Assembly (NCBI GenBank): GCA_973895155.1
Contig: OZ316896.1
Span: 8,267,539-8,331,538, forward strand
Reading direction: 5' to 3'
From: Marsupella aquatica
Taxonomy: Eukaryota > Plantae > Marchantiophyta
DNA length: 64,000 nt
Shown here: positions 2,114 through 37,339 of the stretch, piece by piece
Position numbering within the stretch: the first letter of the stretch is position 1
How the letters are laid out: each line of letters begins with the position of its first letter
Notes under the pieces: generated by a model
What the model saw: only the letters and a program-made list of their open reading frames with translations
The model's database searches: none
Told to the model about the DNA's origin: nothing
Translations under genes and position numbers: made by a program

Positions 2114-3052
2114 CGTTGGCCAGAAATTTGAGAAGCCTTCGATCATATCAATGTCACAGATTACTCATTGGATCGGTTTTGTGCAGTTATCAACAGCGAG
2201 TTTCGGGATCATGTCTAATCAAAAAAACTTCAAAACTGTTGCTGCGTGTAGGCAATGCATCCAAAGACTCCATAGGTCTAATAAGCTTTGAACACTTCAC
2301 TACTACATATTGGCCCCTTTTGCGAAGCTTTTTTTTTACGCCGGGATGGTCTTGCGATGTCATCGACTTCAGATATTTTGTGATCAAACATGCATCACAA
2401 TAAACCATGCTCACAGGTTCGCAACATGGTGTTGCGAAGCTAAATACCTCGCAATTTGTTTGAGATCGGATTGAATTCGCAACTCTTTCAGATACTATTC
2501 GTCTCGCAAAGTATTTGTGGATCCGCGACCATCGCGACTGCATTTGGATCTCTTTTGTTTCATAATTTAGTGATAATAATGTACTCAAATATATATTGTG
2601 AACCTATTAGCTTCGCACAATATTGTGAAGCATAAATAGTCGCAAGTTACCGAATCCAGTTGATTCGCAAAGTTGAGAACACATTGGCATCACAATTACC
2701 GATGGTGTGTTATTCACAAAGTGTTCAGAAGTTGCTTCTTGACAAGCTTGAAAATGTTTTGCAAAGAGAGTTGTTTGAAAATTTTGTAGAATGGAAATGT
2801 TTGAGAGAGTTTCTTTACAAGATGGAGAATGCATGTGTTTAGGTTACAGCTAGGGTTTTCAAAAAGGTGGCATGCATGAGGATAGCTTTGGAAACGGCTA
2901 AGGTTGCATATATAACAGTGAGATGAAATTTCAAAGTCCAATTAAGTGTTTGTAAAACAAAAGAAGAAAAGTAATATGTTAATATAAATAAAACCATGAT
3001 AGTTAGTTTAGGGTCAAATTCTGGGCCCACAACAAGTTTTACTACTAGTGCA

Positions 3053-6000
3053 TCAAACCTGGTCCTCATCCTCGCCTCCATTTGACATAATAATAACGTC
3101 AGGTTTTTCCGAGATAATGGAACGGGACCGTGGCACATACGGTATAACAACTGACCACTCTAGGTCTGGTGGGTACGGAATATAGAAACACTGCTCAAGG
3201 TGACTTGGGAATGTAAATGGTTCAGATGTTTGCCAATGAGATGGTTGAAAGCTAGTTGCTGATGTCTTCAGTCGAGTAAACCCACACTCATCAAGAAGTA
3301 CCGTGCGATTATCACCAACCAGGTGAATTTTGAACCACTTACACTTGAAAACATACTCTTCAAATTTGGAATTGGCATCATAGGATATGATCAAGATCTC
3401 CTCAATCTTCCCATAGTGAGGCACCACATCTCTGATCACATTAGTGTCATGACGGCTACTTTGTGAATCTTGCATGAACTGCCCTTGAACTCCACAATCA
3501 AAAGTTCTTCCCCTCTTCTCATCAAGGTCAGAAATCCTGAAATGCCTCCCTTGTGTCCACATTGCTGTTCTGGTTTGAACAAGTCTTAAAGGACCATGAA
3601 CAATTGTTCGAACCTCAGGAGTCATATCTGGAAAATGTGATACATTCTCACCTTGGGCCACCATAGCATCCAACTGAAGTACTTTCTCCTTCATATACTC
3701 AAGGAACTTTGGAAAGATCCTTGGGCGACGACTCTCCCTCTTTGCATCCTCATAAAACTCTCTCCAATCTTCCATCACATTGCTGTTACTCAACATGAAA
3801 GTACTAACCTGTGTCAACTCCACTGCGGTTAGTAAGCGTGTTTTTTTTGCACCTGTTAAATGGTCCTCCTCCACTTCCCTCTCTTCCATCCAAGTGCGTG
3901 GAAAACTAGGATCAATGGTAGCTAAGATGTTACTACAATAAAACATACTCTCAGCTGCCAAGTATCCAGTTGCCATGCTCCCCTCCACTCGTGCACGGTT
4001 CCGTACATAAGCCTTTAACACGGCCATATACCTTTCCAGCCAATACATCCACCTACAATGCACCGGACCGGCAATGGCAACCTCCCTCACAAGATGAACG
4101 AGAAGATGCACCTGACAATCAAAGAAGGAAGGAGGGAGGGCCTTCTCCAACTTGCATACCACCTCTGCTGCCAATACCTCCATCCGTGGTATCTCTTCTT
4201 CATATATTTCCTTTGAGCATATCCATCTCAACAAAGTGCCCAGTGACCAAAGGGCGTCTTGCACTTCTTCACTCCCCAAACCTATGATTGCCACAGGAAT
4301 TATATGTTGTAGTAAACGATGATAGTCATGTGTCTTGAGATACATTGGCCATTTATGACTATCCTCCATCCCAAAAGCCTTACGTAGATTGGCACCATAG
4401 CCTGTAGGAAACCGCATCTGCCCTATGCGTTGTCGAAACTCTCTTCTTTCACCAACACTCAAAACCCATGGAGCTGAAGGATGATGTTCCATCCCTGTGG
4501 ATTCATCAACTGTTATCCATACATCTGGATGTCGTTCTAGATCCTGGCATGCCTCCCTAAAATTAATGTTCTTTTCCCCATAAAAGTGCTTGATCAAAGC
4601 CTTCCCAACATTTCCCTCTATATGCATGGGGTCTAACAAGTGATGAATCTTCAACTCAGGCCAATAGGGCAAAGTGGCCAGTATACCCCACCTTGTCAAT
4701 CCACTACCATCAAATCCCATGGCATCTTCAGGGTCTGCCACCCTATCAGCTATGGACTTCCAATACGAAAATGTTGTGCGGTCAGGTATCTCACGCTCAT
4801 CACCATTGATCATGTCAAAGTCTGAAAAAAAAGGGGGTCAGACCTCATGTGATGCCCAAGTGGAAGAAACTTGGTATGACCAAGGTAGATTATCTTGTGC
4901 AGCCATTTTGAGTACTTGGCCATATCATGAAGGCTTGGACCACAAGTGGAGCATGCCTTGTACCCTTGAGTTTGGAACCCAGAAACAAACCCAAACCCTG
5001 CTCACAAAATAACATTCTCAATTAGAGTCAAAGGAATTGAAAAGTTCATGTACATAGAATTAAAGAGGGACTTCCTTCCAAACAAACTTGATCTCCAATA
5101 CATGAAAAAAATACAAATCCATACCACTCACCTGGATAGTCATGCATGGTCCACATAATGATTCCCTTCAATTGGAAGACACGTGGTAACCCTCCTGTAG
5201 TTGTCCGACCATCATATGCCCATACACCCCCCCCATAATTTATGGAGTTCCCCAACCAAGAGCGCCAAGTAGGTGTCCATGTTTTTTACCTTAGATGGAC
5301 CTGGGATAATCAATGATAGCAATAAAAATCCCTTTTTCATGGACAACCATGGGGGAAGGTTGTAATTCATAACAACCACCGGCCAAACCGAAGTAGGGCG
5401 CCCTTTCCCTCCAAGGGAGTGTGGGCTTACCCCATCTGATGCCAACCCCAACCTCACATGACGAGGGTCACGTGCAAATTCTGGCCATTGTGACTCCACA
5501 TGCTTGTGAGCAGGGGAATCAACTGGCAACCGCATGACACCGGCCTCTGATCGATGTGTCTTATGCCATACCATCAATTCTGCCAAGTCAGAACATCGGT
5601 ACATGTGCAACAATCGAGGAATAATAGGAAACCAACGAACAACTTTTCTAGGCACCTTTGAGGTCAACATGTTGGTTTCATATCGAGGCTCTTGACAAAT
5701 TGGACACTCAGTTGCGCTGGCATTGGTCTCGTGATAGAGAATGCAGTCATTCACACAAGCATGACTGATATGGTATTCCATGCCAATGGATGATAGAACC
5801 CTCTTTGCCTCCTTCCAAGTTCCTGGCAACACATTTTCACTAGGTAACAAGAGATCATGGCAAATTGCAAACAAATCCGATAGTAGCGCATTGCTTGCCT
5901 TGTGTTTTGCCTGAAGATTCATCAATGCCAAGATGGCAGATAGTCTATTCAAACGAGCACCCCCATAAATAGGTGTTCTAGCATGTGCCTCAGCTTCTTC

Positions 6001-7633
6001 CCATTGTTTTTGTCCTTCAGGTGTACGTTGAGGCCTTGGATCATGTGCAACATTTGGTGGAGGGTCTCCTTCATTGGGTGGGACACCTCCTTCACCACCA
6101 ATGTCTACACCAAACCAATTTGTCATGAAGTCATCCATGGCTGACTCTTGGTCTTGCATGACCTCATAATCTGTCTGAGGTGCCCCTTCATCTGGACTGT
6201 CATTATCATTGTCACTTGATGAGGAATCTGCTGATGATGTTTCCCCGTCTTGTGGCAAGCCCATTTCTTGATATGTAGCTCTCAACCTCCTTGGCAACAT
6301 ATCTTGACTAGGCCGCACATTCTATAGAAAATACAATAAAGTATTCACAATGAAATTAACGCCAAATATAGTAGTGCTCGAAACATATTATTAACAATAT
6401 AAAAAGAACATGTCATTACAAAACATACGTTCACATACGATGAACGTATAATACATGTCCCTAAAGTAATCCTAATCCCATTCATAATGTGTAAACAACT
6501 CCTCTCCAACCATAATGGTCCTATTAGCTACAACTAGACAATGGTCATGATGATATCTCTACCCATAAGGGGCTGGAGGGGGACCATCAACAAAAACCCA
6601 TTCACAGTTTTTCCTACGCTTAGGCCGGGTCCCCACAGTACTGTTGATGAAACTGGCAATATTCCCACTACGGATGGGATCACCATCAATTATACGCTGG
6701 TCACAATACTTTCTGGTGCAACCATCAAAAGTATCCATGTCCAATGCATAAGTCTTCCACTCAGGGTGTTGAACAAGGATCATGTTCCAATGTCTCCTCT
6801 TGTAAATGGGTCCACCATACGGGAACAACGTTGGTCCATCTGAAGAGCGTCCTTTTCCACCCATATCATCCACAATAATGTCCTGACAAGAGAAAATCCC
6901 ATACCCATGCCTCTCCCCTAGGGTCGAACTCTTGACAACCCAACGTCTTCCCCAAACTTCTATCTCCTCACCATAGGTTATATCACATGGCAAACCAAGG
7001 CACTCCGGATTCCAATCCTTTATGATAGGAACACACTTCCCTGTGAAGGTACAAGGGCCCCATCTACCATCAACCCTACAAGTGTACTGATCCACTTCCC
7101 CTCTAGGCTGTCTTTTTGACTTTTTTTTCCCTCTTGTAACAATACCTTCACCCTTAATTGTCCCAACACTACCTTGCCCTGCTGCCACTAAACGAAAAGC
7201 TTGTGAAAGTGCCGAGCCTATAGCATCTAGAACTCCTTGTGAGGGAACATAGGGTGTTGGTGTAGTGGGTGTAGGCCTACTGGATACCTATAGGAAGAAA
7301 TGGAACCAAGTGAGTGTGATGAACCTCCCAAATTTTATTTTATGCTACCTAGCAAGATTTACAAAATAAAATGGAAATCACAGTAAGTTTACAACTCACC
7401 ATACGGGATGAAGAAGCTCCCGGTGTAAGACCTCGATGTTGGCCATATCGAGCAATGTGCTCCGCACATACATATGACTTTTGGACAACCATCCCCACAC
7501 ATTTTTTACAACCACAAAGTTGGCGTGGTGGACCACTAGGTCGACGTACGGTTGGTTCAGGTTGAGGAGGAGGATGACTTTCTTCATCGGAAGAGGAATC
7601 TGATGTGGTGGAAGTTGTAGAGGATGAAGACAT
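3053..7633 (-). CDS. CACTA TnpD-like transposase (Transposase-associated + Transposase_21 + DUF4218/DUF4216-like); predicted exons 7633-7400, 6321-5132, 4997-3053; two 1-nt frameshifts
   Basis: Motifs CGCKKC..AEHIARYG; HACVNDCILY..CPICQEPRY; RHVRLGLASDGVSP; SVWPVVVMNYNLPPWLSMK; MWTMHDYPG; GYKACSTC; HLLDPMHIEGNV; LKTHDYH; PPSFFDCQVHLLVHL..GPVHCRWMYWLERYM; EPFTFPSHLEQCFY. GT-AG junctions are in phase. +1 in the G8 run (5227-5234) and -1 in the T8 run (4825-4832). Confidence 0.9.
6472..7287 (-). CDS. SET-domain (lysine methyltransferase-like) exon inside the CACTA element; one in-frame TAG at 6559-6561
   Basis: VKSSTLGERHGYGIFSCQDI (GxG motif), FPYGG (YxG), YALDM...IIDGDPIRSGNIASFINS...KNCEWV; reading through the TAG gives RYHHDHCLVVANRTIMVGEELFTHYEWD*, matching the SET C-terminal A.R.I..GEEL..Y motif. 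Acceptor ttcctatag|GTA at 7287 is in frame. Confidence 0.85.
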
Positions 7634-8065
7634 CTGACAAGTATAGCAATTGGAAGGCGATTAGTAAAAACTTCACCAAAACCATCATTGATAATCCCTA
7701 CCTAAACATATTAAAAAGAATTGACAGAAAAATACCTTTATGAGACCCGGGCTTAGCAATGCCTTGACGGATCTTGTGGCTCAAATTTCATGAACCAAAT
7801 CTGGAAGGAGGGGAAAATCTGCCAATATACAATGAATTAAGCCATGCCTTATGGTGAACCAGAAAAAAAGGATGATAGATTGTAACCCTCCATATTTACA
7901 GCAATGACTAGAAATGCATGAGAAAATGTTATACCTTTCAGATGCCCGGGCTCTCGCAAGGCATTATCATGCATTAGCCAAAACTTTAAAAAACATGGGA
8001 AAGTGCCCTACAACGCCAAAGAGTTTTCCTCTCCATGTTAATGAGATAGACAAAGAAATATAAGT

Positions 8066-8860
8066 AACCCAAACCCTACCCTAAACCCAAACCATGAAAT
8101 AAAACCCTTCATTAAAACCTAACCCAAATCCCTCAATCACCCTAAACCCTTACCCTTATCCTAACCAATACCCAAATCCCTCATTAAAAATTCAAACCTT
8201 TACCCTAAACCCAAACCCCTACCCTAAACCCAAACCATGAAATGAAACCCTTCATTAAAACCTAACCCAAATCCCTCAAGCACCCTAAACCCTTACCCTT
8301 ATCCTAACCAATACCCAAATCCCTCATTAAAATTTCAAACCTTTACCCTAGACCCAACCCAAATCCCCCAATTACATATAAAACTCTTACCCTATCTACA
8401 CCTTACTTTACCTATATAGGCCAACCCCCACCCCTATAGTTATTCTAAACTTCACCCTAACCCCTAAATTGAGGCCCTTTTTTAAAACTTAAGCAAAAAT
8501 TGTACCCCCTCAATTAGAACCAAATCCAACCCTATATCATGTTACACCCCAACCCAAACACTTACATTAGAAACCCAACCCCTTTAAAAAAACCACAATT
8601 AAACCCCCCAACTAAAAACCAAACCCAATCCCTTTAAAAAACAACCACAATTCAACCCCTCAACTAAAACCAAACCCAACCCCTGTAATTACTCACAACC
8701 TAATGCAAACCTCTACCTTGAACCCTAAGCCAAACCCATTAATTTAAACCCAACCCTTTTATTCCAACCTAACCCAAGTTTTAACCCCCTTAATTAAACC
8801 AAATACTCCTAGATTAAAACCAAATATAAACCTAACCTTTAATTAAACCCAAACCTTTGT
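8066..8860. repeat. Telomere-like (AAACCC/CCCTAAA-rich) low-complexity tract, including a 143-bp tandem duplication (8078-8220 and 8221-~8360)
   Basis: Dense aaaccc/ccctaaa/cccaaa words, almost no G on the plus strand; the unit accctaaacccaaaccatgaaat... recurs at period 143. Confidence 0.8.
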
Positions 8861-9354
8861 TAACTTATATTCTAGTTATCCTTACAACCCAAACATCCAT
8901 TGACACCCCTTCCATGTTAACTTATGGGCACTTAACATACCTTAAATGTCGTTTGACAAACCTTAATAGCCGTTTGACACCCCAAAGTGTTTTCCAACCC
9001 TAAACCGATAAGACCTGCCTCGCAAATTATTTCACAAGTTAGAGAATATTTTTGCGAACCTACGACCTTCGCACTTGCTTCGCAAAAATAGAGGCCGAGA
9101 ACAATTTTTTGGGTCTTCTGCGGGTTGCGATGGCTTTGCGAAGGGAATAGATTCGGAAGTGCCTCGCAAGTTGCGAGACTATTTGCGAGGGCGCGGGCTT
9201 CGCAGTTTCCCATGCGTATGTCATCGCAAACCCGTTTTTGAACGGCGTAAACATCGGCGGGAGCTCGCATTCGGGCTCATTTCAGTTTTTGAGCGAGACG
9301 AGAAGGGCCGGGGCGCGCGCAACAGTACGAGGGAGACTGTGAGAGAGGGGAGCT

Positions 9355-11399
9355 ATGGCTACCGGTGAGGGGAGTGGAGGGCAAGGTGGTAGTGGTAGTG
9401 GTAGTGGCAATGGGGGAAATCCAGAGAAAGAGAAGAATGCCTGGGCAGACTTAGTGGCCCAACATCTCAATGCTGCACAATTGGGAGAAGTGAATCTCAA
9501 TTCTCCAGCAGGCTTGCCTCTTTGAGTGCCATTCTTGGACAGGTTTTGCAAACTGGGATTGTAGCAGGACAAGCTACTAGAGAGGGGGAGGAGAGGGCCG
9601 CAGCTGAAGAGAAGGCTAGAGAGAAAAAAAGGAAGAGAGAGGAAAGAACTAAGTCGGGAGTTGCCTCTCCTCAAGCCCTAGAGAAGCAGAAGAGAAGAGA
9701 GGAGAGAGATTCAATTCGAAAACAGAGGGAGGAGCAACGTCAGAAAGAGGAAGCAAGAAAAAAACTTCCATTCATTGCCTTGGAGACGAGTGGGACTCCA
9801 ACTGAGCTAGCATATGCAGGGGCTAAGAGCACAATCAAGCAGATTATCACAAGCAATTTCTCACGAGGCATGCAGTGGGGGAAGATTGAGAAGGCAGAGC
9901 GAAAGAGGGTCATCAACCAAATCAAGGATGCATTTCGCAATGGGCCTGACATAGATGAGCAATGGTTGGCAGATAAGATTTCAAATTCTATGTCTCAAAT
10001 GCGATACCATGACAGGATGAAGATTAGAGCCCACCTGAAAGACTTGAGATCATACAGGAACTTGCGTAGACCCCTCCACTTCACCGAGGACATCTGGAAT
10101 TCGTTTTACAAGATTGAGGTGCAAATTAAGGCAGCTCACGAGTTGGAAGAGTGGAAGGGCAATCTAGATCGAGCCTTGAAAGCAAAGGAGGCCGGGAAGC
10201 TCCCCCCTGACCACGACCTGAAGCCACTTGAGCAGAAGGTAGCTGAGATGCAGAAGGTGGCCGACCAGGAGGGAAAGCCACCCAAGCGTTTCACAGATGC
10301 AGCCAAACGAGTGAAATCCACCCCCAATCCAGTCCACAAGTTGGGTCAAGGCGGGCTCCCCGGCCTCAAGTCACACTTTGTGAGTGCCTCTTGCTCCTCC
10401 CTAACCTCTCTATTCCTTTCAGAGTTGTGCAATGCAAGTGAATGACATCCCCGAAGGTTCTTGCTGTTGTGCATGCTTGCTTGGTTACTAGTTTAGGGCA
10501 ACTCTGACACTTAGAATTTCTGGCAAATTTTTAAAAACTCTCGGGAACACAGTTTGCGAAGGTGTTGCGATGCGTATTTGTTCGCAAACCCCTCGCAAAG
10601 TCTATCATAGACTTTTTCCATTTCAATTTTCCGATGCCTTTGCGAACAAATGTGCATCGCAAACTCCATCGCAACGCCTTCGCAAAAAAAGGTGGTTCGC
10701 AAGTTGCTATGCTTATAGGTTCACAAATTTGAATTTTAAATTTTTTTTGGGCCATGTTTAGTAGTTGAGGATTTAGGCGTCACTTGTGGCTATAGGGTAT
10801 GCTTAAGGGGAAATTTAACCAATTTTAATTGGTTTTATGCATGGCAGTATCGGAGGTACAAAAGGAAGATATCAAAAAAGCATATTGAGGTGGCGATAGA
10901 GCATGGACGAAAGTACCTCTTTGCGATGGTAGATGCCGAGTTGGCTACTGTAAGTGTCGAAGTGTGAACCATATGATTAGCATGCGAACATTGTGAGTGA
11001 CCCTTTATGTCTTGCGGAAACTAATGATATGTAATGGATGCAGGATTCGGATGAGCCTGAGGGGTCGGGTGCTGATGTGACCAGTAGTGATGACAATGAG
11101 GGGGCTACTCCTGGTACTAGTGGTGCTCGGGGGGGAGTAGTCATGAGGTAGGTTCTTCCCACCGTGGTAGTGGTGGTAGTCGTGTGTCATCAGCACACGT
11201 TGATGACCAGGGGGAGGAGGAGGACCCTGAGGATGAGGAGGAGGATCAGGAGGGGCAGGAGGAGCCAGAGGAGCAGCAGGAGCAGGAGCAGGAGCGCCGA
11301 CGGCCATCACGCACCCGTCACCAACAGGATCCCCGGAAGGATAAGGGCAAGAAGCCAGCCAAGAAGCCAACCAAGAGGAGCCGCAAGAGCCCATTCTAG
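9355..11399 (+). CDS. CACTA ORF2 (TnpA/Ptta-En/Spm-like accessory protein), exons 9355-10379, 10848-10949, 11044-11399; two 1-nt frameshifts
   Basis: ATG at 9355 (MATGEGSGG...), coiled-coil K/E/R region, W..I...ERK.V / W..F helical core and HKLGQGG motif typical of CACTA ORF2 proteins; GT-AG introns in phase; acidic/basic tail. Frame breaks at ~9513 and in the G7 run (11129-11135). Confidence 0.7.
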
Positions 11400-14251
11400 T
11401 TATTTTGTAGAGATACATGCATGAGAGTGACTTGTCATGCCGGAGCTTAGGGTAGGAAGAGGCAGCATAGGTTTAGAAGGGCGGACCTAGCATCAGATAT
11501 TTCCCCCCTCTTGTCCATGTATAGGGTTCTTTGAAGCCCTATCATTTTGTTCATGCTTTTTCATTTTATAAAACAACAATTTTGCCTTCCACATTGGGTT
11601 CCAAGGAAAACCCCTCGCAAATAATGTATTGAATCCTGTGTGATCATAATTTTGCGAACCCTTTAAGAACTCATTCCCATCGCACAATATTAACCCCAAG
11701 GCGTCGCACTTTTTGAGTCAATTAACTTCAGAACTTCAGATCCAAATATGTCGGGTTTTTGTGATACTTCTAGGATTGCACTTTCCTAATCGCAACCGTT
11801 CACAAACTTCTGAAATCACCGGTATCGCTCTTTGTCATACAATCCCCATCAAAACAATTGAACCAGTATCAATCGCAAATATGATGCGATGGTAAATCCG
11901 TCTCAAATATTGACGCCCGCGCGGGACGTGTGCATGTATGTTTGCGAACCTTATGCGACGTATAATGGATCGCAGAAGTATTGAATATTGCGAACCTCTC
12001 AGCTTCTCAGTTTGCCATGATGTTGCGATGCCGTTGCGATGGTCCGCGTGCGAAGTTATTAGGTTCGCAAAGTGCGAAGGGGGTGCGATGCGCGTATGTT
12101 CGCAATAGCCAGAATTATGAAAATCAGGGGCTTGTTAGTTGCGATGAGATTGTCTTCGCAAAACCGGCCGATAGTGTTGTAGTGCTTGTCTGATTCCATG
12201 CGTTGCCCAGCTTGTTCCGGGGGGATTTTTTTGTTTTATTGGGAATTTTTAAGTAGACGGTTGACTCTCAAGGGCCATGTACGTCCTCTAGTTGAAGTAT
12301 GCCTGTAGCTTACATCTAGCTGCTTTTAAACTAATCAAACATTGGGACAAGAAGCTGTCATTGGAGTTGAATCGTGTGTGGTATTAACATGGATTCGGTG
12401 ATGAGTGATCGGTGATGCGTGAACTGTCTTGACAAAAAAAATGGGCATGAGCCCAAAAGTATGGAAGAAAGAATCCACAATTCCCAAATGAGCATAATTG
12501 TACATTATTAATCCAGTCAGTACATGACGGTTGCAAAGGCATATTCCGATTTTCACAGAAGAATCGAAAGACTTGCATACATAAATTTCCCTCGATAAGA
12601 TTCGACGCCATCCATAATGGAAGATGTAAAACAATTTCTCAATACAGTTTCTCAAAATGTAATTCCATCATGAAAATATGAAGCTATCCTGTCGGAAGAT
12701 AGCTAGTGAAATGATAAGGACCAAATCCTTATCATCCAGCCATTGTGAACTCTTGCACCGGATGTGTATTAATTTCAATTCCTTGATGCTTTGGTCGTTG
12801 CTCAGATTGGACGTGAGTTTGCATCAATGGCGAAGCTGCTGATGGGCCGACGGTGTCGGGTTGATGGACAGGATGAAGGGGGTTAAATCGGGCGTCGGTC
12901 TTGTAACTGCGCTACTTGTTGTCGGAGTCGTGAAGCTCATCCTGCACTTTCATAACGCTAAACAAGAGAAAGAAAAATATGATAAGCTAGTCCCAAAGGT
13001 TCAGACCATTGATGGCAATGTGATATGCTTTGAGTGATTTGGCGATTATGTCGGTGAGTTCCTGCAAAATTCTTTGAAGCCTTCTGCTAATTCTTGCTTA
13101 TCTATAGCAGCTTGCCACGATCTTTGACCATAATCCTCAATCTTGGAGGATTTGAATGAGACGGCCTCACATCGTCACTGACTGAGCCTTTTACATAAGA
13201 CTCACATTGCTGTGTAGATCAGAAAATCTTAGCTGCATCCAATACGCAGCAAATCAACCACGAACATCATCAACACTGTCGACGCTCTACCACAATCCAG
13301 CACCTTTGCAGATCTAACTCAAAGCAGGTGAGAGATGAAGAATTCTGAGTTCTGCCCTTCTTTTGTTTGCTGAATTTTATTTGGGTTCGTGGGCGCTGAG
13401 TGATCTGTCTCAGCTTCCTCCATTGTAGTTTGTCTTCTGCACGAACAAGCTCTCTGGATGTGGATAGTCATTATTTGCATTAATGTTCCGCAATTTTGAG
13501 TAATTTTCTTGTGTTTGATGAAGTGGGGCAATGAGTCATACTCCTTCTAAATGGCATCGAGTCCCAGTTGTAGCCTTCGTCAATCGGATTGTATACTTAG
13601 CGGCATAGAATCAAGTCCACTTCTTCCTTCTTCTTAAAAAGCTAGTGGTAGCACAAGGTCGAGAAATTGTCACGACACACAAACCATCTCTGTCCTCCTT
13701 TCTTTTCTGTTCTTGATTTACTTATTACTCGATTGAACCACAATTCATAATGCGGGTGGGCAATCAGTTACTCAGAGTAAATGAAACATAGGGTGGGCCT
13801 ACTATTAATTGAATAGTTGGTTACTCAATGTAAATAAAACGGTTATTTTTAAACATTTTTACATCAAGGTTTACGGCATGGCATCCTCAATTTTATCAAA
13901 ATCCTGCCACAAACACAAATGTTGAATTAATTTTATGTTGTAAACCAATCCGTACCTGTTTACAGCGCGTCTTGATGATGTGACGCGCTGTGGAGTCTCA
14001 AATTTTGGAAGGGACCAGTCCTCTAGTGGGGTTTGTAAACACAAAAATGGCATACAAGTGTTGTGAGATCCCTGCCTTAAATATGGGAAAGACCGCCCTC
14101 CCCCTTCTTAAATGGTTAAATCACATTCCCTACCTCCCTACTGCATTCCTGTCCTATGATGGGCAGTGTATTCACCCTAAAAGCTGGAACCCAAGCCATT
14201 CCTTGTGACACTGAATGTGTGCACTTGAGCATCTCCTGAATGTGTGCACTT

Positions 14252-18672: not shown

Positions 18673-18773
18673 CTGGAAGGGTTTAGTTCGTTATAGCGAC
18701 AAGGTGGAAAACAGGCAGATGCATTGAGGTGAATTGTGATCGAAGAACGATTATTGCCACCGAGAACGAGGCA

Positions 18774-21700
18774 ATGGATTTCAGTTTTCCTCAGGCAAGT
18801 ACTGCAGACGCTGACGAAGAAACCATGCAAAACAAGGCAGACACTTCAATTGACAAGAGGGAAGATGTCATCAAAGAGGAGCACTTCGCGAGCAAGAATG
18901 GAGAAGCGGTGTTTCGTATAGAGGATGGCATTCCCATCGGCCCGAGGAATGCCTCGCAGGCTCTGCCAGAGCCCGGAGGGAAAGGATCGGAGCGTGGTCA
19001 GACAGCTGCGGCTGAGAAGGACGTCGACCCTTCCTTCCAGATTCGAGAGGTTTCATTTTTATCTCTGTTCAAATACGCTGACTGGAAAGATGTCTTACTG
19101 ATGACATTTGGTACAATCGGTGCAATACTCGATGGGTTAACCTTACCGGCCGCGCTGTTCATCACGTCGGGATTAATTAACACGTTCGGATCAGATGTGA
19201 CCTTGGCCAGTGTCAACCCTCAACAGTTCGACCAAGAAATTAACAAGGTATCATGCCGCCATATATATTCCCAAAACTGTAATCTATGTAGTACGAAATT
19301 AACAAGGTACCATGCCACCGTATACTTTCCCGCAACTGCCTGTAGTTTATTGCCAGGATTGTTGTCCTTGCCAGCTATTCTCGCCCACATTCAAGCACTC
19401 AATTAATTCTCGAATGCCAGAATTCCACATTTGTCAGTGCGCGTTACAAAATACAAAATCCTCGTCCTAGGTTCTAGATCGCTACTAGGAATTGGTATGA
19501 AGGGGTCACTCTTAATTACCGAAGGATCGCATTGCTCCTGTATCAAGTTTATAATCACCCACAGAATTACCCGTGTAAACGTTCACCGCAGGTTGATCAT
19601 GACAAGGTTCTGTACTTGGACGTAACGTAATGTGACAAGTATGAATGCCCACAAGAGCATAGTGCATTCATCTCAACCTGGCAGTGGCCGCCACACCAGA
19701 ACATGTCTAAGTAGTAACTTAATTGCTCGTACTTTAGTGCTAGTAATCCCCGAGCATTATTGACAATTTTCCATTTTCTGGTTTGGCTATCTGTGCAGTA
19801 CGTCATTCGATTCATATATCTAGCAATTGTCTGCTGGGTTGCCAGTTTCTTAGGTATGTTGTCAAATTTCCACAGAATGATTTTTTGCAAAGTTCATTTT
19901 GAAGTGCTGGTGGGCCCTCTTGGATGATCGAATTGCTGGCACTGTCTTAAGCTCAGAAAAGCAGCATATATATGATCTGGTTGAATATTGCAGAGGCGGC
20001 TTGCTGGATGCGCACAGGCGAGAGGCAAACGAGTTCTCTCCGTTCTAAGTACCTTAGAGCCATTTTGCGGCAAAATGAGGGGTTTTTTGATACCGCTGGT
20101 GCGAATACAGCTGAAGTGGTCAACAGTGTGTCCGCGGATACGCTCGTCATTCAGGAAGCAATTAGCGAGAAGGTGATTTAAATCACGAAGCTTGAATTGA
20201 AATCTCATTTGTAAATCTTGGTTATGGTACTAAGCATGTACATGAATTCTTGGGGGAATCACTTTAACTTGTCCTTGCCTACACTATACTCCCTTTGATT
20301 GACATTCACTAAGTGAATTTTCATAGACCAGTAAACTGCTTCCCGAGGTCAGTTGCCTCTCGGTGCTTTAAATGTCTTAGACTTAGATGCGACAAACTTA
20401 ATAGCGGATACACGGGCCGATGTATGTATTTCGCAGGTGGGTCATTTCATCACGAATGTATCAAATTTCATCGGAGGATTCGCTGTGTCCTTTTACATGG
20501 TATGGCGGGTGGCGCTGATCCTTGTGGCGTTCTCGCCTCTTCTTGTCATCCCGGGTCTCATATACGGCAGAACATTGACAGGCCTTGCCCGGAGTATGCA
20601 AGCCACCTATGGCGAAGCCGCCACTGTCGCCGAGCAGGCGATCTCCTCCATCAGAACAGTCTATTCCTTCGTGGGCGAGGAAAAGACCGAGAAACGCTTT
20701 TCCAATAGCTTGGACTTCAGCGTGAAGATGGGAATGAAAATGGGGCTGGCTAAAGGATTGGCTGTTGGATCGAATGGCATCACTTTTGCCGTATGGGGAT
20801 TCTTGTCTTGGTATGGAAGCACCCTGATCATAGACGGACGCGTCAGTGGCGGGAAGCTTATTTGTGCCGGATTGGCATCCTTAACAGGAGGATTGTAAGT
20901 TCCTTGGCTTCACCTTGATCCCATAACTATACTACTAGTATCCGCCTCTTGCATTGATCATTGTTATCTGCTTTGTTTGCACCTTACGTTATATCGTGCA
21001 GTACAAGATCTCGTTAGGTTCACACGGGAAAGATCATGTCTGAAGTGATATCATTCAAACACCCACCTAGTTAGCACTTGAAGAATTGCACGGTCCCTCG
21101 TCAGCCCTTAACTAATTCGCAGGGTGGCTCAATATAATTCTTGATAGATTTGCGTAGTCGTGGAGCTCATGAGGCAGATTCCTCTACAAACTACGACGTA
21201 CCGTAGCGGCAATTGAACCGAAAATCCATAGCTACAGTCACTTAGGTTAAAAATTCGAAATCTCTAGTGATAGGATCTATCGAGCTCTTCTGCAACTGGA
21301 AGCTTTCGTCAGCATATTTCTGGCGCCTTCAAGTGATCTTGGTGAATCTCAGCTATCCGCGGTTGGTCCTGCCTATGAGAGTTTGTATGATAGTTTACAT
21401 GATCTGAGCCTCTGTTTACTCTGTAGTCGCTGCCCGTATGCAAGCCATTTGCATATACCTTGGTACGTGCCGTCCATTCCAGAGACCAAACAAAGGAAAT
21501 AATTGACTACGTTGCTGATGTGGTTAGACTGTAGCTAGGCCCAAGTTCTTGTTTATGGGTCAAAGTGCAAGGCAGAAAAATGATGCTGACCAGAGGTCCA
21601 CTTTATGTCCTCGGTTTCGCAGAGCATTGGGAACTGCACTGCCAAACTTGAGGTACTTCTCTGAGGGTCGTTCAGCCGCCACTCGAATCTTTGCTATGAT

Positions 21701-24700
21701 CGACAGAGTACCAGAGATTGACCCCGATAATGTGAGTGGCCAAGTGCTGCAGAAAGTCCAAGGATCTATCGAGCTTCGAAACGTGGAGTTCGCCTACCCG
21801 TCCCGCCCAGATATGCAGATTTTCAAGAACTTCAATTTGCACGTTCCGGCAGGTATGTTTGCTCGATATATAGCTCTAATTCGTCTCATTATGCAAATTA
21901 GGACCCCGTGTACTGACCCGTTTACTGAAATATCCTAATGTCCTGGACTCGATTTTGTACTCTATTCATAATGCCCCTGTAGAGTGTACTCTTGAGGTAC
22001 ATGATGAACTCATGCTTACATAGCCGTCAGATTTTATTTGTTTAACTTCTGATGGACGGAAATTCAGGCTTTGATAGACACTCTCCTTCATCTTCAGTCG
22101 TAAATTAATCCAAGCTAGCAGCATCAATTTATGGTGGCTTTCTCTCTTGTAATCATCGAAATACGCGAGCCAGGCTGTAAATAGTGGATTGTTTGGGTAG
22201 AAGAGAGTTGCAACATATTAGGGCCCTACTCTGACATGAACTTCTCTATTTAAACGGTTGAGCAGGTTTGACAGTTGCACTTGTGGGAGGCAGTGGAAGC
22301 GGGAAATCCACTGTGGTGGCCTTGATTGAGCGATTCTACGATCCGTCGAAGGGTCAGGTCTTGCTAGGCGGCATCAATATCAAAGATCTGCAGCTGAAAT
22401 GGATGCGGAGTCAAATCGGGCTCGTCAGCCAAGAACCTGCTTTATTTGCGACCACCATTAAAGAAAACATTTTATTTGGCAAAGAAGGCGCTTCCATCGA
22501 CGAAGTTATACAGGCTGCAAAAGCTTCTAATGCCCACAACTTCATCTCGATGATGCCCATGGGCTATGATACACAGGTCAGGCTAAACGTCTGTCTTATT
22601 CCGAAACTATGAATATATTATAGGTGGCACTTCGCTACAGTACCACATCGTGATGATGATTGAACTTCCATTTTCAGGATAGATGGACGCAACGGAGACT
22701 GATGTGGTGTAGATGTTATCTCCTGGACTGGTATGCAGGTCGGAGACAAAGGAGTGCAAATGTCTGGAGGACAGAAGCAAAGAATAGCTATAGCTCGAGC
22801 TATTCTGAAGAACCCGCCAATTCTGCTTCTGGATGAAGCAACCAGTGCTCTGGATGCGGAGTCGGAGAAGGTGGTGCAAGGAGCTCTGGAAGCGGCATCT
22901 GTTGGCCGAACCACTGTGGTGGTCGCTCATCGCCTCTCGACTATTCGCACGGCTGACATGATTGCTGTGGTCTCAGGTAGACTTACACCCTGGATTCTAA
23001 AATATAGATTTGAGTATGTCATATTCGAAGTGTCATCAATTGATTGAGAAAAGAAAATCAATTTGGTATGACCTCATTGAACTGTATAGAATGAGGTCAG
23101 TCAGAATTTCTCTGTATGGCTCAGTGTCTGAAGGATTTGTCGCTGATAATCCAAATCGAAAACGAAAATGATGTTTTGGAGGTCACTCGTGATAGTTTGA
23201 CGAGCGTTCATGCACTATTTCCCAGACTTTTGGAGTATAACGTTACATGGTTTGATTCCACCCATATCCAGGCTAGGGAAGGATGAGTGATCTGTAGGTT
23301 CCGTCCTGTTCAGTTACGGTGAGTGAATAGATCGGAGGACGAAATATCAGGATGAAGCGCCGCGTGTACAGTAAGGGTTGTTTTAAATACCTTCGAACTT
23401 TTTCCTCCAAATGAATGTTTATCTCGAAATTGAACCTTAACGTTTTTCTGTGAACGATTTGCGTTGAATTCAAAGGTGGACAAGTGGTGGAAACCGGGAC
23501 CCACGACGATCTCGTACATATTGCCGGGGGTGCCTATGCAGCGCTAGTAAACCTCCAGCAAACTAGAAGTGCCCAAGACAACACCAGTGAAGAAGTGAAA
23601 TCATCTATCCAGAGAATGAGTCAAGAGAGATTGAGCTCACGGTCCATGGGGTCGAAAAGTTGGCGATCTTATTCGATGGGTGGATCACAGAGATACAGAG
23701 AGGAGCTCAGGCAATCATTTTCTGGACCAGAAGTGCATCCGATATCTGATTCGTCCAGAGACTTTGCCTCGGGCCTTGACTCTCCAGTTAAAGCTCCCTC
23801 GTTCACAAGGCTACTAGCTATGAACAAACCTGAGTGGAAACAAGCAATTCTTGGGTCAATTGGTGCAGTTGGCTTTGGGCTGGTGCAGCCATTGTATGCC
23901 TTCTGCTTGGGAAGCATGATCTCCATCTTCTACTTGCAAGACCACCATAAACTACAAAATGAAGTCGATCACTACGCTTTGATCTTCGTTGCTCTGGCCA
24001 TTGCTTGTTTTATCGTCAATCTCCTTCAGCACTACAACTTTGCAGCCATGGGAGAGCTTCTTACAAAGAGGATTAGAACCAACATGTTGTCGAAGATCCT
24101 CACGTTCGAGGTCGGATGGTTCGATCAGGACGAGAATTCGAGTGGGGCGGTCTGCTCAAGACTTGCATCCGAGGCCAACGTGGTATGGTTTGCGCTATCT
24201 GCAACTTCTGTTATCTGCTTTGTGAGGAATTCCGCTTCATTTCAATATCCAATGACTTTTAATGTGATAATTTCATGGATCTCGTTGTCCAGATATCGTC
24301 TCTCTTGGCTGAACCCCTTCATTCTTCATGCTTTCCAAAACTATGCAGAAAGTCATGTCTAAGATCCACGATATTTAAAAAATTTCATTCTCGCGAACCC
24401 ACACTTCCCTAATATTAATCACAGAAGCATTTAAAAGCTCTCGAAATTTAATTTCATTCCTCTGTAATTTTCGTTCCCCTGGAACATCGAAAAGCTTACA
24501 TCACCTAATACTTGAGCTTGTTCTTATGGAACGAATGAACTGTGAACGAATGAATGTATTAATCAATCAAGGAGACTCACCGTAGGAGTAGACTGTCGGT
24601 TCTATGGCTAACCATCTCCCGAAAAGATTGAGTTAAAGATCCCTGTCATCAGCGTTAAATTCCCTGAAATCTATTCGTCACAATTTTACAATTGTGACTT

Positions 24701-27064
24701 TGCATTGATGTGACCCGCCAAAATTTTGAATGTAACCAAACTTTACGTTGTGCTGAATGTGCAGGTTCGCTCCCTCGTTGGAGATCGGATCTCGCTGATC
24801 ATCCAGACCCTATCCGCCGTTACAATATCATTTGTCTTTGGATTGGCGATATCCTGGAAACTATCTTTGGTGATGATAGCAGTGCAACCGGTAGTCATCA
24901 CGTGCTACTACATCAAGAAGGTTCTTCTTCACAGCATGTACAATCTCACACTCGAAGCTCAGGAAGAAGGTAGTCAGGTGGCTAGCGAGGCTGTCTCACA
25001 TCACCGAACCATCTCTGCTTTCTCGTCTCAAGATAAGATCATGGGATTGTTCGCAGAAATGATGGCCGGACCCCAGAAGGAGTCGCAAAAGAGAGCCATA
25101 ATCGCAGGCTGTGGCCTTGGCACCGCTCAATTCTTCATGTATTGTACTTGGGCTCTGGACTTTTGGTGGGGTGGCAAGCTGGTAGCGGAAGGACAACTTT
25201 CCTTTGGCGCGTTGTTCAAGTGTTTTTTCATCCTGGTAGCATCAGGGAGGATGATTGCTGATGCAGGGAGCATGACTTCGGATCTGGCCAAGGGAGCCAA
25301 CTCGATCATTACCGTCTTCACTATCTTGGATAGAAAAACACAGATCAACCCCGATGATGCAGGAGCAACAAAGCTCGAGAAAGTTGATGGGCATGTAGAG
25401 ATCCGAGATGTGGACTTTGCCTATCCATCCCGACCTGACGTGTTGGTCTTCAAGAACTTCAACCTCAAAGTCAGGGCTGGGAGGAACGTGGCGCTTGTGG
25501 GCCAAAGCGGATCTGGGAAGAGCACAATAATTGGTTTGATAGAAAGGTAATCCAAAATTCTGGCCATCAGCCGAGTCATATTTTCATCTACGTGTGTGAT
25601 ATGTGTTTAGTTGAACATCAGGAAAAAACTTTCCATACTACGTGAGTTCTTTTTGCCAGTCGATTGCGAATTTTGGAAGTAGGCTTGAGATCCGTTGGGA
25701 GAAGGTATGGCACAGTTGGTCTCTTCTTAAAACATCAAAGGCGTATGAACAGGGCAACAGAAAGAACTTAAATGCAGACTGCATTGTCCCGTTCTTTAGA
25801 TGGAAATTCTTACGGGATGTTGAACATGTGCTGAATATGATCATACTCGACATTTTGTAATGAAGAGATTACTAGACTTGCCCCTGAATTTTGTAGATTG
25901 ACTTTTTGTCTAGATTTCGAATGCCATGTTCCCTTGAACTACATTCTGATGAAAATTCTCTCGTATTCCCTTTAACTACATTTATGCTTTGTCTAACCTT
26001 CTGCCTCGTAAGGTGTTTTTGTTCATTTTAAGTGATGTAATTCCAGAAGAGATTAGCTGAGATTGACTGGCTCCTAGTGCGTTGAAATGGATATCAGAAC
26101 CCGTTCTAGTAATATTCGTCGAGACTTGTGTGGAATCTAGTACTTACCTGTACATGATTTGTGCAGGTTCTATGATCCTTTGAAGGGACAGGTGAAGATT
26201 GACGGAACAAATATTAAGGCAATACATTTGAGGACACTAAGAAGTCACATAGCTCTGGTTGGACAAGAGCCGACCCTGTTTGCTGGTACGATTCGGGAAA
26301 ACATTCTGTATGGGAGGGACAATGCTACAGAGGCAGAAATTGTGGAAGCCAGTAAGGCTGCCAATGCCTTCAACTTTATCAGGTGACAATTGACCGAACA
26401 CGGGGCAGGATTCTTTGATCTGGTTGAATGAATTTTGATGCTAAATAATGTACCAAGTCTGAAATTTCCTTCCTCGTTCTCATCATCAGTATCACTCAGG
26501 TAGTAATCCTTGAAGTCGACTGAAGACCACATGACCTAGTGTGACTCAGGTTGACGTACACGGTGTGAATTGTCTAGGCAAGCCCCATCTTTCCTTCTTT
26601 GTTTCGTTTTCCCAGACCTAAAGGCAATCGCTGATAGTCTTAGAAACTGAATTCTTATCTTTCTTTTTAATTTTTTTTGCATTCTCAGTTCACTGAAAGA
26701 TGGATTCAACACTCAAACTGGAGAGCGTGGACTTCAGCTGTCAGGCGGTCAAAAGCAAAGAATTGCCATAGCCCGAGCAATCCTGAAGAATCCTGCAATT
26801 TTGCTGCTAGATGAAGCCACAAGCGCGTTGGATGCCCAGTCAGAGAGAATAGTCCAGGATGCACTGGATAGAATCATGGTGGGTAGAACTACAATAGTGG
26901 TGGCTCATCGACTTTCCACCATCCAGAATTGTGACACCATAGCTGTTATTCAGGATGGCTCTATTCTCGAGCAAGGCAAGCACGACGAGTTAATTTCCAA
27001 GGGTGAGGGTGGGGCTTATTATTCATTAGTGAAGCTGCAAACGAAGAACGCTCAAGGCGGCTGA
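18774..27064 (+). CDS. ABCB: Full-size ABC transporter B family (MDR/P-glycoprotein), resembling the plant ABCB15-like clade; exons 18774-19247, 19799-19853, 19994-20172, 20437-20894, 21623-21852, 22266-22576, 22739-22976, 23476-24182, 24765-25546, 26167-26382, 26689-27064
   Basis: TMD-NBD-TMD-NBD layout: [15 protein letters not shown], Walker [10 protein letters not shown] and GQSGSGKST, signature [14 protein letters not shown] and [14 protein letters not shown], Walker [12 protein letters not shown] twice; all introns GT-AG and in phase. Confidence 0.96.
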
Positions 27065-30156: not shown

Positions 30157-30500
30157 TGTTGAGCATAGACGACATTCGTAACGGCAAGCCCATGAACCAT
30201 CCAACGCACAATAGTCGACACAGAGAGATACGTGGTTCACCTCCACATGAGGCTACGTCCACGGGAACACACAAGAGCTTTACTGCACTCTAGGCCGACC
30301 GGCCATACCAAGCATCCACAGCACAAGCTCTCCCTATCTCTCAACTAGCTCCGTAACAATGAGCCTAAGTTCCACCAGGGTCTGGCATCAACCCTGGCTA
30401 TATGCACAACAGCACTAGCGCTAACATTAGCTAAGTCCTAACCCGAGTTAGACTAACTGTGGTTAGCTCATGAGTCACAAGACTAGAGCAATATCTAACA
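30157..30500 (-). repeat. Copia 3' LTR
   Basis: tgttgagca...atctaaca, adjacent to the polypurine tract. Confidence 0.96.
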
Positions 30501-30706
30501 AACTCCCCCTTGACTCTTGTCTTGGGGACTGGACTAAATGCAACCATATGGAATCCTCAGCGGGAAGTTCTAGACAATCACCAAACCAGGTCTCCCCCTA
30601 AAAACCACAAGGGTTAACTAAGGGTTAACTAGAACTAAACCGTAGCCAAAAGGAATGAGTAATCCATATACAAATAGTCTCACATTGCTAAATAACTCTA
30701 CTTGCA

Positions 30707-33700
30707 TTACAACTGCAAAACCTGCAAAGTAGCACGGTGTCTTGAGAAACTCTCCAAAGGAATCACTTTGGTAAAGGCATCAGCGGGATTGAGCTTTCCA
30801 TCAATCTTGACTAGCTCAAAAGTTTTATCAGACACTGCTTGCCTGATAAAATGGTACCTGATATCAATGTGCTTCACCCTGCTATCCATCACCTGGTTAG
30901 CAGCCAAGTGAAGAGCACTCTGACTATCACAATTTAGAGTCATTTTTCCATGCTCTAAATTCATCTCCGCGATCAACTTATCCAACCAAATTGCTTCCTT
31001 TGCTGCTTCTGCTGTTGCAACATACTCTGCTTCTGTAGTAGACTGAGATATGCACTTCTGCAAGGTAGATTTCCAACTGATACATCCTCCTCCAAGAGTG
31101 TATACAAACCCAGTTGTAGATCTCCTTGTATCCAGACAGCCTCCATAGTCAGAATCTACATAGCCAACTAACGTTCTATTTGATCTGTTATCAAATAGTA
31201 ATCCATAGTCCTGTGTTCCTCTCACATACCTGAGAATCCATTTCACAGCTTCCCAATGTACCTTCCCTGGATTTGACATGAATCTACTGACCTTGCCCAT
31301 CGCTAGGGCCAAGTCAGGCCTAGTACAAGTCATCAAATACATCAGACTGCCTACTGCCTTCTCATAAGGAATCTTAGCCATCAGACCTTTCTCCACAGCA
31401 TCCGTAGGAGAGAAAGCCAATGATAACTTGAAATGTGAAGGTAAAGGAATACTCACTGGCTTACAGTTCTCCATGTTGAATCGTGCAAGTACTTTCCTCG
31501 CATACTGGCCTTGACTCAAGCACAACTGTCCAGTCTCAGAGTTCCTAAAAATCTCCATCCCTAAGATCCTCTTGGCCTTACCAAGATCCTTCATCCTGAA
31601 TTTAGCACTCAATTTCGCCTTGAGACTGTCAACCTCAGATTGATCTTTAGCCACAATCAGCATGTCATCCACATAGATCACTAGAATGATGAACCCAAAC
31701 ACATCATTCTTGACTGATTTCGTATACACACAAGGATCATACACCATCCTTGTAAAACCTTGAGCAAGCATGAAATTATCAAACCGCTTGTTCCACTGTC
31801 TGGGAGACTGCTTCAATCCATACAAGGGCTTGAGTAATCTGCAAACTAAGCTCTCTTGGCTCTTCTTCATAAAGCCTACTGGCTGTCTCATGAAGATCAT
31901 CTCTTCCAAGTTGCCATAGAGAAAAGCAGTAACAACATCCATCTGATCCATTATCAGACCAAAAAACACAACAAGCTGACACAAGATCCGAATTGTGGAA
32001 TACTTAGCCACCGGTGAAAAGACCTCATTGTAGTCCACTCCTTTCTCCTGAGTGAACCCCTTGGCAACAAGCCTTGCCTTGTAGATCTTATCTCCACCCT
32101 CTGAAGGACTGTCCTTCAACTTGTAAATCCACTTGCTGTCCACCACTTGTTGACCTCTTGGAAGCTCCACCAGCTCCCATGTCTTGTTGTCACTCAAAGA
32201 TTGCAACTCCCTCTGCATTGTTGCATTCCACTCATGCTTCTGCTCTGAAGCACAAGCCTCACTGTACGAAGAAGGCTCTCCTTCTTCCAAGATCAAAGCC
32301 ATATCATCATCATCAGATGCAATGTCAATGTCATCTAGCTTAGATGAGTCTGCCCATTGACCATACCTGGTAGGAGCTCTAGTAGAACGACTAGAAGTTC
32401 TTCTAGTAGATGACTCAGGCTGATCTGCTGCTGCTGCTGGTTGAATTTGAGGTACCCTAGCAACAATCTGCTCCTCTTGTTCCATCATAGGAACCAGCTC
32501 CAAGCCCGGAGCTTCTCCACCTCTCCTGTCATGAACAACATCATGACTAATCTCCCCCTCAACCGGGTCCGGGATGGGAGATTTCCCCTTGTTAGTATGG
32601 GAGTCCTGAGAACTCTCCCCCTCCTTTGATGATCTGGATTCATTAAAGGACACATCTTTACTGACAATTAGTTTACAGGTTACTGGATCCCATAACCTAT
32701 AACCCTTCACACCTTTCTGATAGCCAAGGAAAATGCACTTCTTCGACTTGGACTCCAGCTTGGATCGAAGCTGGGAAGGTGTAAGCACATAAGCATCACA
32801 TCCAAAAATCCTCAAATGTGAATAATCTGCTGGACGCCCGTACCTCATTTCAAATGACGTCTTGAATCCAATAGAACTGGATGGAGAAAAATTTACCAAA
32901 TAAGCTGCAGTGTTGACAGCTTCAGCCCAAAACTCATGTGGTAAGCATGATTGACTCAACATACTCCTCGAGCGGTCCAATAGTGTTCGGTTGAGTCTCT
33001 CAGAAACACCATTCTGTTGAGGAGTATAACTTGTTGTGAGATGGCGGGTAATCCCCTGCTCCTTACAATACGTTCCAAATTCCCCGGAACTGTATTCACC
33101 GCCGTTATCCGATCGAAGATATCTCACCTTATTACCAGTCTGATTCTCAACTTGGGCTTTCCACTCCTTAAAAATGGCAAAAACATCAGACTTACTGTGT
33201 AGAAAGTATATCCACACATACCTTGAGTAATCGTCTATGAACGTGACATAGTATAACCGTCCAGAATGTGAGGGAGTAGGGGCTGGACCCCACACATCAC
33301 TATGTACATACTCAAGTAACTCCTTGTTCGTGTGAGTTCCAACTCCGAAGGGTTTCCTGTGCTGCTTCCCAAGCACACAGTGCTCACAAAATTCCAACTT
33401 ACAAGATTGTAAATTAGAAAGTAATCCTTTCTTCTGAAGAATAACCAAACCTTTTTCACTCATGTGGCCCAAACGGAAGTGCCACAGCCGGGCCGTCTCC
33501 TCATGAGATAAGGTTGCATTGGCTTCATCACTGACTACACTGCCCTCCAAAACGTATAGATTGGAATGTCTCTTTCCCTTCAATACAACTTTAGTACTAG
33601 TTGAAACCTGAAGGACACCATTAGCAGAACTCCACTGATGGCCATTTGCTTCTAAAACTCCAAGTGAAATGAGATTTTTCATCATGTTGGGAATGTGTCT

Positions 33701-36725: not shown

Positions 36726-37069
36726 TGTTGAGCATAGACGACATTCGTAACGGCAAGCCCATGAACCATCCAACGCACAATAGTCGACACAGAGAGATAC
36801 GTGGTTCACCTCCACATGAGACTACGTCCACGGGAACACACAAGAGCTTTACTGCACTCTGGGCCGACCGGCCATACCAAGCATCCACAGCACAAGCTCT
36901 CCCTATCTCTCAACTAGCTCCGTAATAATGAGCCTAAGTTCCACCAGGGTCTGGCATCAACCCTAGCTATATGCACAACAGCACTAGCGCTAACATTAGC
37001 TAAGTCCTAACCCGAGTTAGACTAACTGTGGTTAGCTCATGAGTCACAAGACTAAAGCAATATCTAACA
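36726..37069 (-). repeat. Copia 5' LTR
   Basis: Near-identical to 30157-30500; followed on the minus strand by the PBS TGGTATCAGAGC. Confidence 0.96.
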
Positions 37070-37339
37070 CACCAGGGCCCCAGTCTGGGTGGATCTACCA
37101 CTATTGAATCCAACATTCGAGTACTATGCCAACTCCCTACTTGCTAAGGTGGGCACAGTTCTGTATGCCCAAACACACAAGTCCAAGAGTAAATTCTCAC
37201 ACATCAGAGGATGTGTGCTCTGCAACCTCAACGAAGATCTATTGGAATATATTAATGTCTCTATCCCGGAGGTGGGAAACTACCGGGTAGACGTTATATA
37301 TCGCACTTTTATTACTAGAAGTTTGTTTTTCATGCAAAC

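Follow-up and report, generated by a model that had tools for sequence, protein, structure and literature searches.

A CACTA transposon of the liverwort Marsupella aquatica with a SET exon predicted to share its first coding exon with the transposase

The element and the genes it carries

The window analysed here is a stretch of 64,000 nucleotides of the Marsupella aquatica genome, and all positions are given within it. It contains a complete CACTA (En/Spm) element (Table 1), with ends of the form CACT(A/G), CACTAC starting at 2298 and GTAGTG finishing at 12184, and with a 3-bp target-site duplication, CTT, on both flanks. Subterminal repeats of the type TTGCGA/TCGCAA occur at 4.2 per kb within the element vs 0.24 outside, and cluster at both element ends and at two inner sites. 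The 64-kb window holds no second copy. Contigs from three of four public runs contain the empty site, with 2294 joined to 12185, and the insertion is therefore not fixed. An alternative empty site, in which 2288 is joined to 12189 with four letters between, is present in contigs of runs X3 and X4; this variant has small deletions on both sides of the duplication and represents either an excision footprint or a plain allele. In run X1 the flank has a depth of about 42 and single contigs of the element one near 600; although depth is no copy number, this points to a family with many copies that are nearly identical. The closest named relatives of the element's proteins come from liverworts and mosses.

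Table 1. Features of the CACTA element, in window coordinates (L001 is a related locus from a metagenome)
Feature	Position	Strand	Description
Complete CACTA (En/Spm) element	2298..12184	.	9887 bp, CACTAC...GTAGTG ends
Left terminal inverted repeat	2298..2327	+	Adjoining CTT duplication 2295-2297
Last transposase exon	3053..4997	-	Rest of core, DUF4218, DUF4216; frameshift, T run near 4824
Transposase exon	5132..6321	-	Acidic linker and start of Transposase_21; +1 frameshift, G run near 5227
150-nt spacer	6322..6471	-	73% A+T; predicted SET 3' UTR/poly(A) region and 3' end of long transposase intron
SET exon, predicted alternative last exon	6472..7287	-	271 codons and stop; broken here
Premature TAG in SET frame	6559..6561	-	CAG in L001
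Phase-0 intron between E1 and SET	7288..7399	-	112 nt, GTGAGT...ttcctatag; 111 nt in L001
E1, first coding exon	7400..7633	-	78 aa; Ser/acidic start, then CxCxxC...H motif related to PF13963
Predicted non-coding exon B	7736..7818	-	83 nt; short upstream ORF inside
Predicted non-coding exon A, 3' end	7935..7953	-	Donor AAG/GTA; block and donor conserved in L001
Degenerate AAACCC-type repeats	8065..8860	.	Between the two divergent genes
Right terminal inverted repeat	12154..12184	-	Adjoining CTT duplication 12185-12187
Second gene, three predicted exons	9355..11399	+	Divergent to transposase; frameshifts near 9510 and 11128

This copy is broken: SET, transposase and second gene are all disrupted. 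The transposase is recognizable from Pfam matches to Transposase_21 (E=8e-32, in the frame opening at 6321), DUF4218 (2.9e-34) and DUF4216 (3.1e-6, below its cut-off). Both of its frameshifts (5227 and 4824) sit in homopolymer runs, and because an X1 contig of depth 620 lacks both, they belong to this copy or its assembly. E1 and the downstream exons together predict a transposase of about 1120 aa, within the range of full-length relatives. The second gene gave no Pfam match with E below 0.07 and no usable match in an Atlas search; its position suggests a TnpA-like accessory gene. It lies head-to-head with the transposase unit, and clusters of the TTGCGA repeat (9020-9230 and 10550-10700) flank and interrupt it. 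The AAACCC(T) repeats between the two genes are degenerate and telomere-like and include a 143-nt duplication.

Elsewhere the window contains a Ty1/copia element (30157-37072) with a long pol frame (30710-33925) and LTR-like repeats, a partial copy related to it (303-2113), exons of an ABC transporter gene on the plus strand (18687-25547; ABC_membrane match at 23454-24356, E=1.7e-16) and, also on the plus strand, a frame at 53912-54631 with a weak Myb/SANT-like match (E=0.009) that is possibly a PIF/Harbinger accessory gene.

Splice signals, SET domain and the proposed shared exon

An earlier sequence-only reading of this DNA had proposed that one exon is followed by two acceptors in the same phase, one opening a SET frame and the other the transposase frame. 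The signals are as described: 7633-7400 is 234 nt or 78 codons long and ends ATG/GTGAGT in phase 0 (slashes mark exon borders), and the acceptors ttcctatag/GTA (7287) and tttctatag/AAT (6321) are both phase 0 and in frame with E1. Both long frames start directly after the TAG of their acceptor; in the whole window, 16 of 359 frames of at least 60 aa start right after a TAG with at least 11 pyrimidines in 15 nt. Scored between 7640 and 6322 with a donor weight table, the GT at 7399 is the strongest donor, and the same scan found no strong in-frame donor near the SET end. The spacer behind the SET stop is proposed as SET 3' UTR and poly(A) region on the basis of its composition, its conservation against L001 being no better than that of shuffles.

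E1 had also been called the first exon, which needs correcting. It begins immediately behind an acceptor (cttgtcag/ATG), and at least two predicted non-coding exons precede it. Exon B (7818-7736) lies between AG and GT and is 83 nt long both in the window and in L001, with 62 matches and a score reached by 0 of 200 shuffles; similarity of the introns on either side of it is at shuffle level. Given the acceptor directly before it and the conserved exon B upstream, E1 is therefore the first coding exon. The counterparts of exon B and of the exon A block in L001 lie at 413-495 and 288-310 (window 7818-7736 and 7953-7935), and the length of exon B is the same in the two loci despite more than one change per synonymous site. 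In both, its upstream ATG falls within a small predicted hairpin, and folding z values of -1.9 (window) and +0.1 (L001) lend no support to exon B as a structured RNA.

The SET protein had been given as about 349 aa. In this copy an in-frame TAG (6561-6559) leaves 320 aa, and 349 aa requires read-through. The TAG precedes the motif ELFTHY (ELxxxY), which we take to be the SET catalytic motif, and the catalytic end is lost from this copy. When read through, the 7287 frame matches the SET domain above the Pfam cut-off (E=6.6e-6), and the truncated 320-aa version alone gives no SET match. L001 has CAG at the position of the TAG, and Gln occurs in 15 of the 19 homologues whose alignment includes a residue there, so the stop is most simply a C-to-T change. 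The first Met of the window's SET exon does not come before residue 142, and SET in this subfamily therefore depends on E1. An early Met, 4-6 codons from the start of the SET exon, is present in Sphagnum-type copies and in L001, and there SET could start at this Met without E1.

The structure was modelled on the homologue P0005, whose match to the window frame covers 76% of that frame at 73% identity, from an alignment of 75 sequences. The model has a pLDDT of 92.3 and a SET fold (Foldseek, SET8, E=1.5e-7), and the Atlas search agrees with SET at the fold level. Its match to Set1 (Z 12.2, rmsd 2.5, 124 aligned residues) is tied with those to PRC2, SET7/9 and SET8, and because the top Z values lie within 1 of each other the fold gives no subfamily or substrate. 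A full E1 and SET model from 37 sequences is of low confidence (pLDDT 43). In the 75 sequences, which diverge to 25% identity, the motifs typical of SET enzymes are conserved with the exception of one His: the two Gly of GxG (65/69 and 68/70), Gly and Tyr of YxGxxY (72/73 and 73/73), Asn (64/72), Glu (60/62) and the final Tyr (56/60). Where the NH(S/C) motif usually has His after Asn, 69 of 72 sequences have Ser. A PDB sequence search with a shallow alignment returned no match; with a deeper one the closest solved sequence was Legionella LegAS4 (E=2.4e-6), which also has no His after Asn and for which a structure with an H3 peptide exists. In intact homologues the protein ends shortly after the catalytic Tyr, by a few residues at most; the chain compared stops three residues past it and has no cysteine post-SET region. 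Judging from the model and these motifs, the family's SET protein is likely to be enzymatically active, and its most likely function would be that of a lysine methyltransferase serving the element, probably by marking chromatin to counter silencing.

If E1 serves the SET protein, does it also serve the transposase? Its identification as a Transposase-associated motif (PF13963) stands in part. It falls short of the Pfam cut-off (16.7 vs 27.7 bits, E=0.0086), and a Pfam scan found no PF13963 match in 13 homologous models or in the E1 of L001. A profile-profile test was positive: HHalign aligned the E1 profile with 77 PF13963 N-termini over 34 columns (probability 76%, pairwise E=2.3e-5), with 0-1 of 500 shuffles doing as well; for the E1 of the window itself, 0 of 500 shuffles attained its score. 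The best PF13963-like match among the 255 frame fragments of the element is E1, which thus appears to be its only such segment, and the Cys/His motif of E1 is conserved in the family. Among the matches listed, 102 of 120 transposase relatives carry PF13963. Nine gene models enter the transposase exon from different SET positions, and in these the first exon residues resemble those of the window. Their first Met lies 62-81 residues into the transposase exon in six of the nine, and the exon therefore apparently codes from its beginning but has no initiator ATG there; of the six Met-less models, five belong to a single subfamily, and the junctions were placed by eye. E1 is thus likely also spliced to the transposase (7400^6321), to judge from frames and profiles. 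As a candidate for a conserved transposase exon start, ‘ENV’ in the Riccia model P0048 was ruled out, as P0201 places ENV in SET.

Conservation of the layout across bryophytes

Of 599 candidates from a search with the SET frame, 40 were homologues. The E1-SET junction (GASSSRM then VSSRP, phase 0) recurs in Calypogeia fissa P0001 (351 aa), and E1-SET models of 343-348 aa are annotated in Sphagnum jensenii, S. troendelagicum, S. balticum, S. fallax and S. compactum (15 members listed, from a cluster of 360). When 1.84 billion representatives were searched with a profile, 129 matched; 20 of these were looked up, 11 from Riccia sorocarpa, two from Calypogeia and seven without an organism, so that every nameable protein (13 of the 20) is bryophyte. 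E1 and SET are both present in 25 of 324 proteins examined, including distant Riccia sorocarpa models, and in Riccia and Sphagnum models SET immediately precedes the transposase. These gene models are predictions; P0196 (423 aa) is one continuous E1-SET frame from a 2141-nt Logan contig. Scans of viral contigs and of prokaryote genomes found no SET relatives in either.

A metagenome scan yielded one locus, L001, from 400 candidate stretches. At 60% amino acid identity L001 keeps the E1 donor, a 111-nt intron, the phase-0 SET acceptor and the SET stop, and it ends at ttgttcatag/AATATG, the counterpart of the far acceptor at 6321. A diverged relative thus retains the donor and both acceptors. 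One contig of run X1 (depth 604) covers the donor and near acceptor, running from 7006 to 7636 with a single letter changed; among the long pieces listed from the four runs, none reaches 6321 or 6561. In 17 of 18 unspliced E1 reading frames the residue after the E1 end is Val (GTN codon); two models of spliced type, a frameshifted record and a truncated one are excluded from this count. Compared between the window and L001, the E1 core has a dN/dS of 0.14 and SET residues 71-242 one of 0.17 (dS above 1, introns at shuffle level); E1 and SET are under purifying selection.

The E1-SET pairing recurs in Sphagnum and Riccia subfamilies merely 35-45% alike in SET, and the layout is, by this sequence comparison, a family trait and not a peculiarity of this copy. 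The purifying selection, the donor and acceptors conserved in L001, the E1-SET models in three bryophyte genera and the lack of an early Met in the window's SET exon thus lend good support to the proposal of SET as an integral part of the transposase unit rather than passive cargo. In a tree of 46 rows from the longer SET matches, drawn without an outgroup, the window falls with P0011, P0002 and Calypogeia P0001 in a well-supported group of 13 rows that includes Sphagnum. Distant members of the SET family on long branches are P0263, P0270 and their cluster mates (Calypogeia fissa), P0262, P0266, P0271 and P0281. Two of the distant Calypogeia models have no transposase part and could be domesticated or derive from other elements.

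One unit with two predicted products, and its relation to known systems

The reading that we consider probable is that one unit encodes two proteins through a shared first coding exon, a predicted zinc-site and SET methyltransferase and the transposase. Transcription would start from one promoter in the 8000-9300 region and run through non-coding 5' exons into E1. Splicing of E1 to the near acceptor at 7287, with the RNA ending in the AT-rich spacer after the SET stop, would give a protein of about 349 aa in intact copies; splicing to the far acceptor at 6321, with SET skipped, would give the transposase of about 1120 aa with PF13963, Transposase_21, DUF4218 and DUF4216 in that order. SET would then be an alternative last exon, inserted into the intron behind the transposase N-terminal domain or acquired together with it. 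A broader scenario is offered tentatively and is at present the less probable part: that a CACTA lineage across mosses and both major liverwort groups encodes a histone methyltransferase by exon sharing, that the zinc-site domain of E1 guides SET to the element or transpososome, that the resulting mark defeats silencing, and that the element toggles between lifting its silencing and transposing according to whether the RNA terminates after SET or SET is skipped. The parts given to E1 as a targeting or docking module and to the SET protein in anti-silencing are speculative.

Alternatively, E1 might now belong to the SET gene only, the transposase being made from a separate start or from a non-coding 5' exon joined to 6321, with the ATG at 6300 and no PF13963. 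None of the 324 proteins joins E1 directly to the transposase, the sole one with both (P0027) having SET between them, and a search with E1 for longer proteins returned 14 matches, none with a direct join. In the window itself a Met (the ATG at 6300) occurs 8 codons into the transposase exon, two Riccia models have one at +6, and in L001 AAT ATG follows the acceptor. The predicted distance from the Cys motif to IHAC, 224 aa, also exceeds that of all 78 angiosperm transposases measured of 118 relatives (121-207), and 18 of the 120 relatives, among the matches listed, do without PF13963. We nevertheless judge this arrangement unlikely, since the first Met of six of the nine models comes only after 62-81 residues, the E1 donor and both acceptors share phase 0 and the element has no other PF13963-like segment.

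A different product altogether, a SETMAR-like fusion of E1, SET and transposase made through a donor inside the SET exon, draws on the seven of 324 models in which transposase sequence follows SET (among them P0027, P0048, P0049 and P0246). The place at which SET is left varies from model to model and most of them cut it short, which is what gene prediction on broken copies would produce, and a fusion fits poorly with intact homologues that end close behind the catalytic Tyr, with the SET stop retained in L001 and with the want of a strong in-frame donor near the SET end; such a working product is very improbable. That SET is a fragment of a host gene carried along passively, its in-frame acceptors owed to coincidence and the habits of gene prediction, is scarcely credible, and the signal of selection has largely disposed of the idea. 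The interruption of SET in this copy is what such a fragment would look like, but its dN/dS of 0.17, the active-site motifs conserved across 75 sequences, the recurrence of the pairing in subfamilies so far apart in SET and the bryophyte origin of all 13 nameable proteins, from the 20 looked up of 129, speak against it.

We know of no function for PF13963, though it is found on most CACTA transposases, and the shared exon, should that reading hold, would offer a handle on this domain. Many ‘SET domain-containing protein’ models in the annotations of Sphagnum, Calypogeia and Riccia are probably transposon parts, and counts of bryophyte chromatin genes would therefore be inflated. The broader scenario, if true, would moreover amount to an enzyme-based anti-silencing system in land-plant transposons.

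How does this compare with known SET proteins and transposons? The transposon protein shares with Set1/COMPASS, EZH2, SET7/9, SET8, ATXR5 and LegAS4 the fold (Z 9.8-12.2, rmsd 2.3-3.2) and the GxG, YxG, Asn and Tyr motifs; unlike these lysine methyltransferases, to which it is 16-29% identical, it has no cysteine post-SET region. SETMAR/Metnase is a domesticated host fusion of SET with a mariner transposase. Its SET domain matches at Z 8.3, and the two have SET and transposase sequence in one locus; the unit described here differs in being mobile and in that SET and transposase core are predicted alternatives and not fused.

Maize En/Spm and Arabidopsis ATENSPM3/7 are described as making TnpD and TnpA from one alternatively spliced gene, and related families as splitting the two into separate genes (PMC13547354; bioRxiv 10.64898/2026.08.24.746577). 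With En/Spm the present element has in common its CACTA ends, the duplication of 3 bp, a TnpD-type order of domains and the prediction that one transcription unit yields a second protein. The second product is, however, a SET protein and not the TnpA DNA-binding factor, and SET lies upstream of the transposase core, with which it would share a coding domain. The extra gene stands head-to-head on the other strand, in contrast to the head-to-tail order described for the split Arabidopsis families. The En/Spm analogy drawn earlier is therefore a loose one: it fits the second protein predicted from one unit and fails on the nature of that protein and on the further gene on the opposite strand. The introns of 64 angiosperm CACTA transposases lie mostly in three regions, located at the catalytic core or behind it (PMC4158355).

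SET genes in other DNA transposons are reported for HarbingerS and MuDR of Phytophthora (PMC12730594) and for Helitrons and the red-algal Plavaka, PAG2 being a methylase-SET fusion (bioRxiv 10.1101/2025.02.11.637652). The present element is, like these, a DNA transposon with a SET accessory gene, and Plavaka belongs, on that account, to the wider EnSpm/CACTA superfamily. As described there, these SET genes are separate accessory genes, in oomycetes and red algae; the present element sits in a land plant, and its SET is predicted to be joined to the transposase's own N-terminal domain. A search of openly accessible articles and of the main text of preprints found no description of SET genes in land-plant CACTA elements, nor do the available sections of PMC11982613 contain any. 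SET cargo in transposons is thus already known, and what is new is probably the land-plant CACTA host and the exon sharing with the transposase.

VANC of VANDAL elements and TnpA are presented as sequence-specific DNA-binding anti-silencing factors that cause hypomethylation (PMC13547354; bioRxiv 10.64898/2026.08.24.746577). Like them, the SET protein would be an accessory factor that the element encodes and that may act against the silencing of its own family; unlike them, it is a predicted enzyme. These known plant anti-silencing proteins bind DNA; a transposon-borne enzyme that writes on chromatin in land plants would, if true, be a different strategy.
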